Of a stretch of 64,000 bases of DNA, positions 13,192 to 13,877 are shown piece after piece. The position numbers and the translations under genes were made by a program. The stretch is from Escherichia phage FL18: sequence record PP400780; one strand, 5' to 3'. Position 1 is the stretch's first letter. Each line of letters opens with the position of its first letter. Below the pieces are notes generated by a model, which had not been told where the DNA came from, made no database searches, and worked only from the letters and a program-made list of their open reading frames with translations.

Positions 13192-13422
13192 ATGTCTACT
13201 GAAACTATCGAAAAACTGCAGTCTGAAATCGTTACTCTGAAATCTCGCATTCTTGATACTCAAGACCAAGCGGCTGCTATCCAGCAAGAATCTCAGCAAC
13301 TTGGTAGTGCTCTTGCTAAAATCGCTAATCTGGTTGGTATCACTGGCGAATCAGTTAAGATTGATGACCTGGTAGAAGCAGTACGTGAACTTGTTAAAGC
13401 TGAAACCACAGAAGAAGAATAA
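13192..13422 (+). CDS. 57A: tail fiber assembly chaperone gp57A
   Basis: 76 aa coiled-coil ORF after gene 1. Confidence 0.65.
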
Positions 13423-13877
13423 TGAAATTTGAGGACTTTTCACAAGGCCTCTACGTCGCAGCTAAATTTTCGGAATTAACACTTGATGCGCTGGAAGACC
13501 TCCAGCGCAAATTAAGAATTCCTAATCCAGTACCACGTGAAAAGCTTCATTCAACAATTTGTTATTCACGTGTAAACATACCATATACTACATCTAGTGG
13601 TAGTTATTCTGTTGCCGAATCAGGACACTTTGAGGTATGGAAAACTGACGACGGCGCTGTACTGGTTTTAGTTCTTGATTCTGAATATCTTAGATGTCGT
13701 CATCAGTATGCACGAGCTTTAGGTGCTACTCATGATTTCGACGACTACACTCCACATATAACGTTATCATATAACGTTGGCCAACTATCATTCAGTGGTG
13801 ATGTAGCTATTCCGGTTATTCTCGACCGTGAATACAAAGAACCCTTAAAACTAGATTGGGCCGAAGATCTAAAATAA
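13422..13877 (+). CDS. 57B: 57B-like 2H phosphoesterase (Acb1-like anti-CBASS nuclease candidate)
   Basis: 151 aa; two H-x-T-x motifs (HSTICY, HITLSY); position after 57A. Confidence 0.65.

Follow-up and report, generated by a model that had tools for sequence, protein, structure and literature searches.

The gene at 13422–13877 on the + strand of the window, by which we mean the whole 64,000-nucleotide stretch of Escherichia phage FL18 DNA (PP400780) that was analysed, very probably encodes Acb1, a metal-independent 2H phosphoesterase that would counter the CBASS defence of the host. It is the ortholog of gene 57B of phage T4 at the level of sequence, of individual residues, of fold and of synteny. 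Its product aligns with T4 Acb1 (NP_049750.1) at 85% identity and 92% similarity, over the full length and with no gaps, and the Acb1-like function that a sequence-only reading of this DNA had proposed is supported by that identity together with the shared gene order, the conserved functional residues and the predicted fold. The enzymatic activity and the in vivo role of the protein we infer from experiments on the Acb1 enzymes of T4, the 85%-identical ortholog, and of Erwinia phage FBB1.

Gene structure and neighbourhood

The gene belongs to a co-oriented block with the following features, in coordinates of the window.

12417..12425, + strand: TGTTATAAT, a sequence upstream of gene 1 that resembles an extended -10 element; T4 has it unchanged at the aligned position
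12453..13187, + strand: gene 1 (dNMP kinase), which opens the co-oriented block 1-57A-57B, collinear with T4; Pfam PF21448 DNMK, E 1.7e-96
13192..13422, + strand: gene 57A (tail-fibre assembly chaperone), directly upstream of acb1; Pfam PF17594 GP57, E 5.9e-23
13422..13877, + strand: acb1 (gene 57B ortholog), open reading frame of 151 aa plus stop, assigned by Pfam, PHROG, the T4 match and its UniRef name

Read on the + strand, the acb1 frame starts with an ATG at 13422, ends with a TAA at 13875–13877 and encodes 151 aa. The antisense frames listed within it are just 30–35 aa long and without support, and an Rfam scan of 11500–17000 returned two downstream tRNAs only, with nothing over the acb1 frame. 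Gene order in the window (a gp3-like gene, gp1, 57A, 57B and internal head protein genes) is collinear with that of T4, where 57B follows genes 3 and 1 and is flanked by 57A and ipI. The sequence-only reading had proposed both this frame and a gene 57B position for it, and both claims hold: the 151-aa frame is intact, and it has gp3, gp1 (the dNMP kinase) and 57A upstream and internal head proteins downstream, as in T4. What differs is the identity of the downstream neighbours: T4 has ipI, the window a pair of unrelated genes for internal head proteins.

Besides the place of acb1 after 57A and before the internal-protein genes, the window shares with T4 an overlap of start and stop codons. The TAA stop of 57A and the ATG of acb1 have one base in common in the sequence TAATG (13420–13424), and an ATGA overlap is found at the same 57A/57B junction of T4. 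From these overlaps, the sequence suggests that translation of Acb1 may be coupled to that of the 57A tail-fibre chaperone gene.

The conserved element TGTTATAAT is a putative promoter that could possibly drive a 1-57A-57B transcript. It is preceded by AATCGCTTCTA in the window and by TAATGCTTCA in T4, and we take the latter version to resemble the MotA box of a middle promoter. A generic promoter scan, which cannot inform on middle and late promoters of the T4 type, gave 19 promoter-like sites where 13.4 ± 3.7 were expected. The sole late-promoter-like match to TATAAATA in 11001–15600 lies at 12830, within gene 1. A terminator scan gave no convincing site at the boundaries of 57B with 57A and with the gene that follows.

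Catalytic motifs, ligand-binding residues and lid

Three elements of the protein, which are also encoded on the + strand, bear directly on its presumed chemistry.

13548..13556, + strand: first catalytic HxT, H43-S44-T45 (H44/T46 in T4), invariant in the 32-sequence family alignment
13755..13763, + strand: second catalytic HxT, H112-I113-T114 (H113/T115 in T4), with P111, H112 and T114 invariant in the alignment
13851..13874, + strand: C-terminal lid, residues 144–151 (LDWAEDLK), including W146 (W147 in T4); 7 of 8 residues are those of T4 145–152 (LDWADDLK)

The motif HSTICY begins at residue 43, with H43 encoded by 13548–13550 and T45 by 13554–13556, and HITLSY begins at residue 112, with H112 encoded by 13755–13757 and T114 by 13761–13763. 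Both motifs had been seen in the initial reading, which placed the first correctly at residue 43 and the second at about residue 111, one short of its true position. By themselves, two HxT motifs are weak evidence. At least two H-x-T motifs occur in 2.3% of composition-preserving shuffles of this protein, and because the pair arises by chance that often, the case for Acb1 rests on full-length homology. In the actual protein both motifs fall within the full-length match to the Acb1 family and align with the catalytic residues H44, T46, H113 and T115 of T4.

According to the FBB1 structures, these four residues form the catalytic HxT/HxT tetrad, Y12, W74, F107 and W147 stack on the bases, E141 reads adenine, and residues 145–152 make up the lid, which catalysis requires (PMC9117128). 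All nine functional residues are kept in the window protein, where Y11, H43, T45, W73, F106, H112, T114, E140 and W146 correspond to Y12, H44, T46, W74, F107, H113, T115, E141 and W147 of T4, each one position lower. The window protein is one residue shorter at its N-terminus because T4 Acb1 is annotated from an extra upstream ATG, so that the window numbering is the T4 numbering minus one. The features by which membership in Acb1 is recognised, namely the catalytic tetrad, the stacking aromatics, the adenine-reading Glu and the C-terminal lid, were all found and are common to the two proteins; the 22 substitutions between them are conservative or of surface type, and none falls at a known functional residue. 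In a family alignment of 32 sequences reaching down to 30% identity, no variation is seen at G9, Y11, H43, T45, S49, L81, V82, G101, D105, P111, H112 or T114, and conservation of E140 and W146 is 90% or higher.

Known functions of Acb1 and proposed action

A 3'3'-cGAMP-degrading activity was purified from T4-infected cells by Hobbs et al. in 2022, traced to 57B and named Acb1, and loss of 57B abolishes the degradation of cGAMP in infected cells (PMC9117128). The initial reading had given T4 57B this name, and rightly so, NP_049750.1 being the protein that was so named (PMC9117128). Nine further homologs were assayed in the same study and all nine cleave 3'3'-cGAMP and cAAA; cleavage is independent of metal and proceeds in two steps via a cyclic phosphate intermediate, and an H44A/H113A double mutant of T4 Acb1 has no catalysis (PMC9117128). 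The structures of FBB1 Acb1 have a compact 2H phosphoesterase fold in which the lid shuts over the bound ligand (PMC9117128). T4 lacking acb1 grows normally on hosts without CBASS and >300-fold worse on CBASS hosts (PMC9117128), and in transposon sequencing insertions in 57B were depleted on a CBASS host, which means that the gene is important there. T4 Acb1 also degrades the decoys 2'3'-c-di-AMP and cA3, whose loss serves Panoptes guard systems as a trigger. Phages escape Panoptes by inactivating acb1, and T4 Acb1 without residues 145–152 no longer triggers Panoptes cell death.

By analogy with the T4 and FBB1 enzymes, the phage would make Acb1 during infection, and its targets would be cyclic di- and trinucleotides produced by host CBASS cyclases, i.e. 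3'3'-cGAMP, cUA, cAAA and relatives containing at least one AMP. The substrate would be bound in a U-shaped pocket on the beta-sheet, with its bases stacking on Y11, W73, F106 and W146 and with E140 reading the N6 of adenine, whereupon the C-terminal lid (residues 144–151) would shut over it. The H43/T45/H112/T114 tetrad would then provide acid-base catalysis, the 2'-OH of adenosine attacking the 3'-5' bond, and the products would be a 2',3'-cyclic phosphate intermediate and, in turn, a linear 3'-phosphate. With the signal removed, CBASS effectors would stay off and the infected cell would survive until the phage cycle is complete.

Some indirect support for this role in the Mosigvirus clade may be drawn from phage MM02, which is listed as encoding Acb1 and is restricted by Panoptes. 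The phages Bas46 and Bas47 of the BASEL collection are called MM02-like, and the Acb1 of Bas47 (AlbertHofmann) is 99% identical to that of the window.

It could also be that the same enzyme has its main selective value against other cyclic-nucleotide pathways, such as type III CRISPR systems that signal through cA3, although we consider this unlikely. T4 Acb1 does cleave cAAA, evasion of type III CRISPR was suggested by Hobbs et al. (PMC9117128), and the enzyme degrades the 2'3'-c-di-AMP and cA3 decoys, by which Panoptes senses it. However, the type III CRISPR effect stands as a suggestion only in the cited literature, the degradation of Panoptes decoys is a liability and not a benefit, and the in vivo phenotypes of the T4 ortholog, the >300-fold defect of the deletion and the depletion of transposons in 57B, are those seen on CBASS hosts. 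A target of the type III CRISPR kind is possible as an additional role, and the countering of CBASS is the main function that we retain.

According to a preprint, minor variation in the core of 2H phosphodiesterases can alter which substrates they prefer. The 22 differences from T4 could conceivably shift the substrate range of Mosigvirus Acb1, for example towards weaker cleavage of the 2'3'-c-di-AMP or cA3 decoys. We rate the chances of such a shift as low. If it were true, the Mosigvirus enzyme would be a tuned specificity variant within the T4-type clade, by which CBASS is countered and Panoptes is provoked less.

Family assignment and predicted fold

Residues 8–149 of the window protein match positions 1–144 of the 144-position Pfam profile PF23474 (Acb1) with 197.3 bits (E 1.3e-58), against a cut-off of 27 bits. 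The best match among solved structures is FBB1 Acb1 (PDB 7T26/7T27, E 1.1e-58). All but one short fragment of the 85 database homologs carry PF23474, and wherever UniRef gives one of them a name, it is Anti-CBASS protein Acb1. A search of NCBIfam gave no model that matches the protein.

An AlphaFold2 model, for which the alignment input consisted of the database homologs only, reached a mean pLDDT of 88.9 and a pTM of 0.82, with low confidence only at both termini, including the tip of the lid. Residues 148–151 of the lid have pLDDT below 50, in agreement with flexibility of the lid in the apo form. The model shows a 2H phosphoesterase fold that is compact, with a pocket on the central beta-sheet, as is expected of an Acb1. 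In Foldseek it superimposes on 7T26 with an E value of 9.9e-20, TM scores of 0.87 and 0.96, an rmsd of 0.9 Å over 136 columns and 62% identity; next in the ranking come 7T27 and the phosphodiesterase of Burkholderia phage BCSR5 (9Q2G/9Q2Y), with LigT and further 2H enzymes at a long distance. The FBB1 protein, solved as an apo form (7T26) and with 3'3'-cGAMP (7T27), has about 61% identity with the window protein and keeps the catalytic tetrad, but carries one extra residue past the beta-hairpin near residue 79, and a Tyr where the window protein has F106.

The BCSR5 enzyme, 2H PDE-9, belongs to the same structural group of 2H phosphodiesterases as T4 Acb1, has the same HxT histidines and degrades 3'3'-cGAMP. 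It is, however, only 16–18% identical to the window protein, and its lid is N-terminal whereas that of the window protein is C-terminal, as in T4-type enzymes. It spares 2'3'-c-di-AMP, and Panoptes is therefore not triggered by it.

It is very unlikely that the protein is instead a LigT-like 2'-5' RNA ligase, or a cyclic phosphodiesterase that acts on RNA ends as in tRNA repair. This reading would fit the match to PHROG 755 (E 2.4e-65), whose description is 'RNA ligase', and the same product name in RefSeq records of related phages, as well as a weak match to Pfam 2_5_RNA_ligase2 (PF13563, E 0.013) and the presence of E. coli LigT structures among the distant fold matches in Foldseek. The Pfam match, however, scores 15.9 bits against a cut-off of 27 and covers residues 70–131 only, compared with 197 bits for Acb1, and the LigT structures align with TM scores of 0.45–0.55 and 14–17% identity, compared with 0.87–0.96 and 62% for Acb1. 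E. coli LigT and other 2'-5' RNA ligase-type enzymes share with the window protein the 2H fold with two HxT/S motifs, but are larger (about 170–180 aa), act on other substrates and reach a TM score of about 0.5 and 14–17% identity. In addition, the T4 ortholog was found by activity-guided fractionation as a cGAMP-degrading enzyme (PMC9117128), and the cited Acb1 literature holds no report of a ligase activity of 57B. The label 'RNA ligase' is thus rejected, the LigT-type Pfam match being sub-threshold and the fold match distant; this name and 'hypothetical protein' reflect older automatic naming or naming by 2H superfamily rather than contrary data.

Selection on acb1

Compared with its T4 counterpart, acb1 has a nucleotide identity of 75%, with dN 0.126, dS 1.84 and a dN/dS of about 0.07, a ratio that is approximate because dS (1.8) is near saturation. 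Such a ratio indicates that the gene has been under strong purifying selection. Natural loss-of-function alleles of acb1, selected by Panoptes, do occur, but an inactive copy here has next to no probability and, so far as the sequence shows, is excluded: the frame is unbroken and aligns collinearly with T4 57B throughout, all catalytic and binding residues are present, dN/dS is about 0.07, and the exact 151-aa sequence is found on 142 contigs.

Other genes and elements in the window

A second gene related to CBASS signals lies further downstream. At 27167–27433 (+ strand) the window encodes a homolog of the sponge protein Acb2 (T4 Vs.4), 88 aa long and 64% identical to T4 Vs.4, which matches the Pfam Acb2/Tad1 hairpin family PF24729 (E 1.1e-16). 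Its start at ATG 27167 matches that of T4, the program-made ORF list reaching upstream to a TTG at 26999. With the Acb2 homolog beside Acb1, the phage has, like T4, both a degrader and a sponge for CBASS signals.

Several further genes were noted around acb1 and in a second region downstream.

13955–14266 and 14316–14591, + strand: internal-protein-like genes of PHROG 'internal head protein' families
15613–15686 and 15693–15766, + strand: two tRNA genes found by Rfam, annotated as tRNA-Met and tRNA-Arg in phage JM17
23571–24029 and 24052–24552, + strand: NUDIX hydrolase (nudE-like) and T4-type lysozyme (gene e-like), in that order
24534–24830, 25000–25260 and 25284–25628, + strand: internal-protein-like genes with an MKTYQEFIAE-like N-terminus and no Pfam match

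The two tRNA genes lie about 1.7 kb downstream of acb1, and the counterpart region of T4 holds eight. The nudE-like and e-like genes adjoin the second cluster of internal-protein-like genes, an arrangement also found in the e/ipIII/ipII region of T4. A sequence resembling MKTYQEFIAE is present at or near the N-terminus of the proteins of five small genes on the + strand, and is presumably akin to the sequence by which T4 internal proteins are targeted to the capsid. The ipI gene that adjoins acb1 in T4 encodes an anti-restriction protein (PMC9117128). Because of this function of the T4 neighbour, the five genes of the MKTYQEFIAE type may be candidates for injected anti-defence proteins.

Both internal head protein genes downstream of acb1 have an early-promoter-like sequence (TTTACA, a 17 nt spacer and TACTAT or TATAGT) in front of them, at 13892–13926 and 14267–14304 (+ strand), and at both sites an inverted repeat of 10–11 bp extends between and over the hexamers. 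After 57B, T4 has the same arrangement of promoter and stem with another stem, GATGAGGTA...TACCTCATC, in that the pairing is kept and the sequence differs. For composite promoter/terminator motifs known as PeSL, a role as mediators of the shuffling of genes in T4-type phages has been reported (PMC2839356, PMC4122927). Judged by their sequence, the two elements of the window resemble PeSLs, a likeness that fits the difference in the gene beside acb1, which is ipI in T4 and another gene in the window phage.

Distribution, annotation and significance

The window phage belongs to the genus Mosigvirus (the RB69 group). Positions 12400–14400 match Escherichia phage JM17 (PP400779.1; Straboviridae, Tevenvirinae, Mosigvirus) at 100% identity, and positions 1–25000 match other Mosigvirus genomes at about 98%. 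In a tblastn search, the window Acb1 is encoded by 137 phage records with identities of at least 99% and a recognisable homolog by 1,469 records, and the exact sequence is present in UniRef100 as A0A6B9WR69 ('Anti-CBASS protein Acb1, n=14, Mosigvirus'). Public names for the protein are inconsistent: most GenBank records of Mosigvirus have 'hypothetical protein', RefSeq has 'RNA ligase', one record has 'cyclic phosphodiesterase' and UniProt has 'Anti-CBASS protein Acb1'.

The acb1 gene of the window is already known and catalogued, having been defined biochemically, structurally and genetically in 2022 and having a Pfam family of its own. The value of the present assignment for annotation is that the labels 'hypothetical protein' and 'RNA ligase' should become 'anti-CBASS nuclease Acb1'. 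As to the biology of these phages, the presence of both an intact acb1 and an acb2 homolog in Mosigvirus isolates predicts resistance to many CBASS systems and, at the same time, sensitivity to guard systems of the Panoptes type, both of which would be relevant to host range and to phage therapy.
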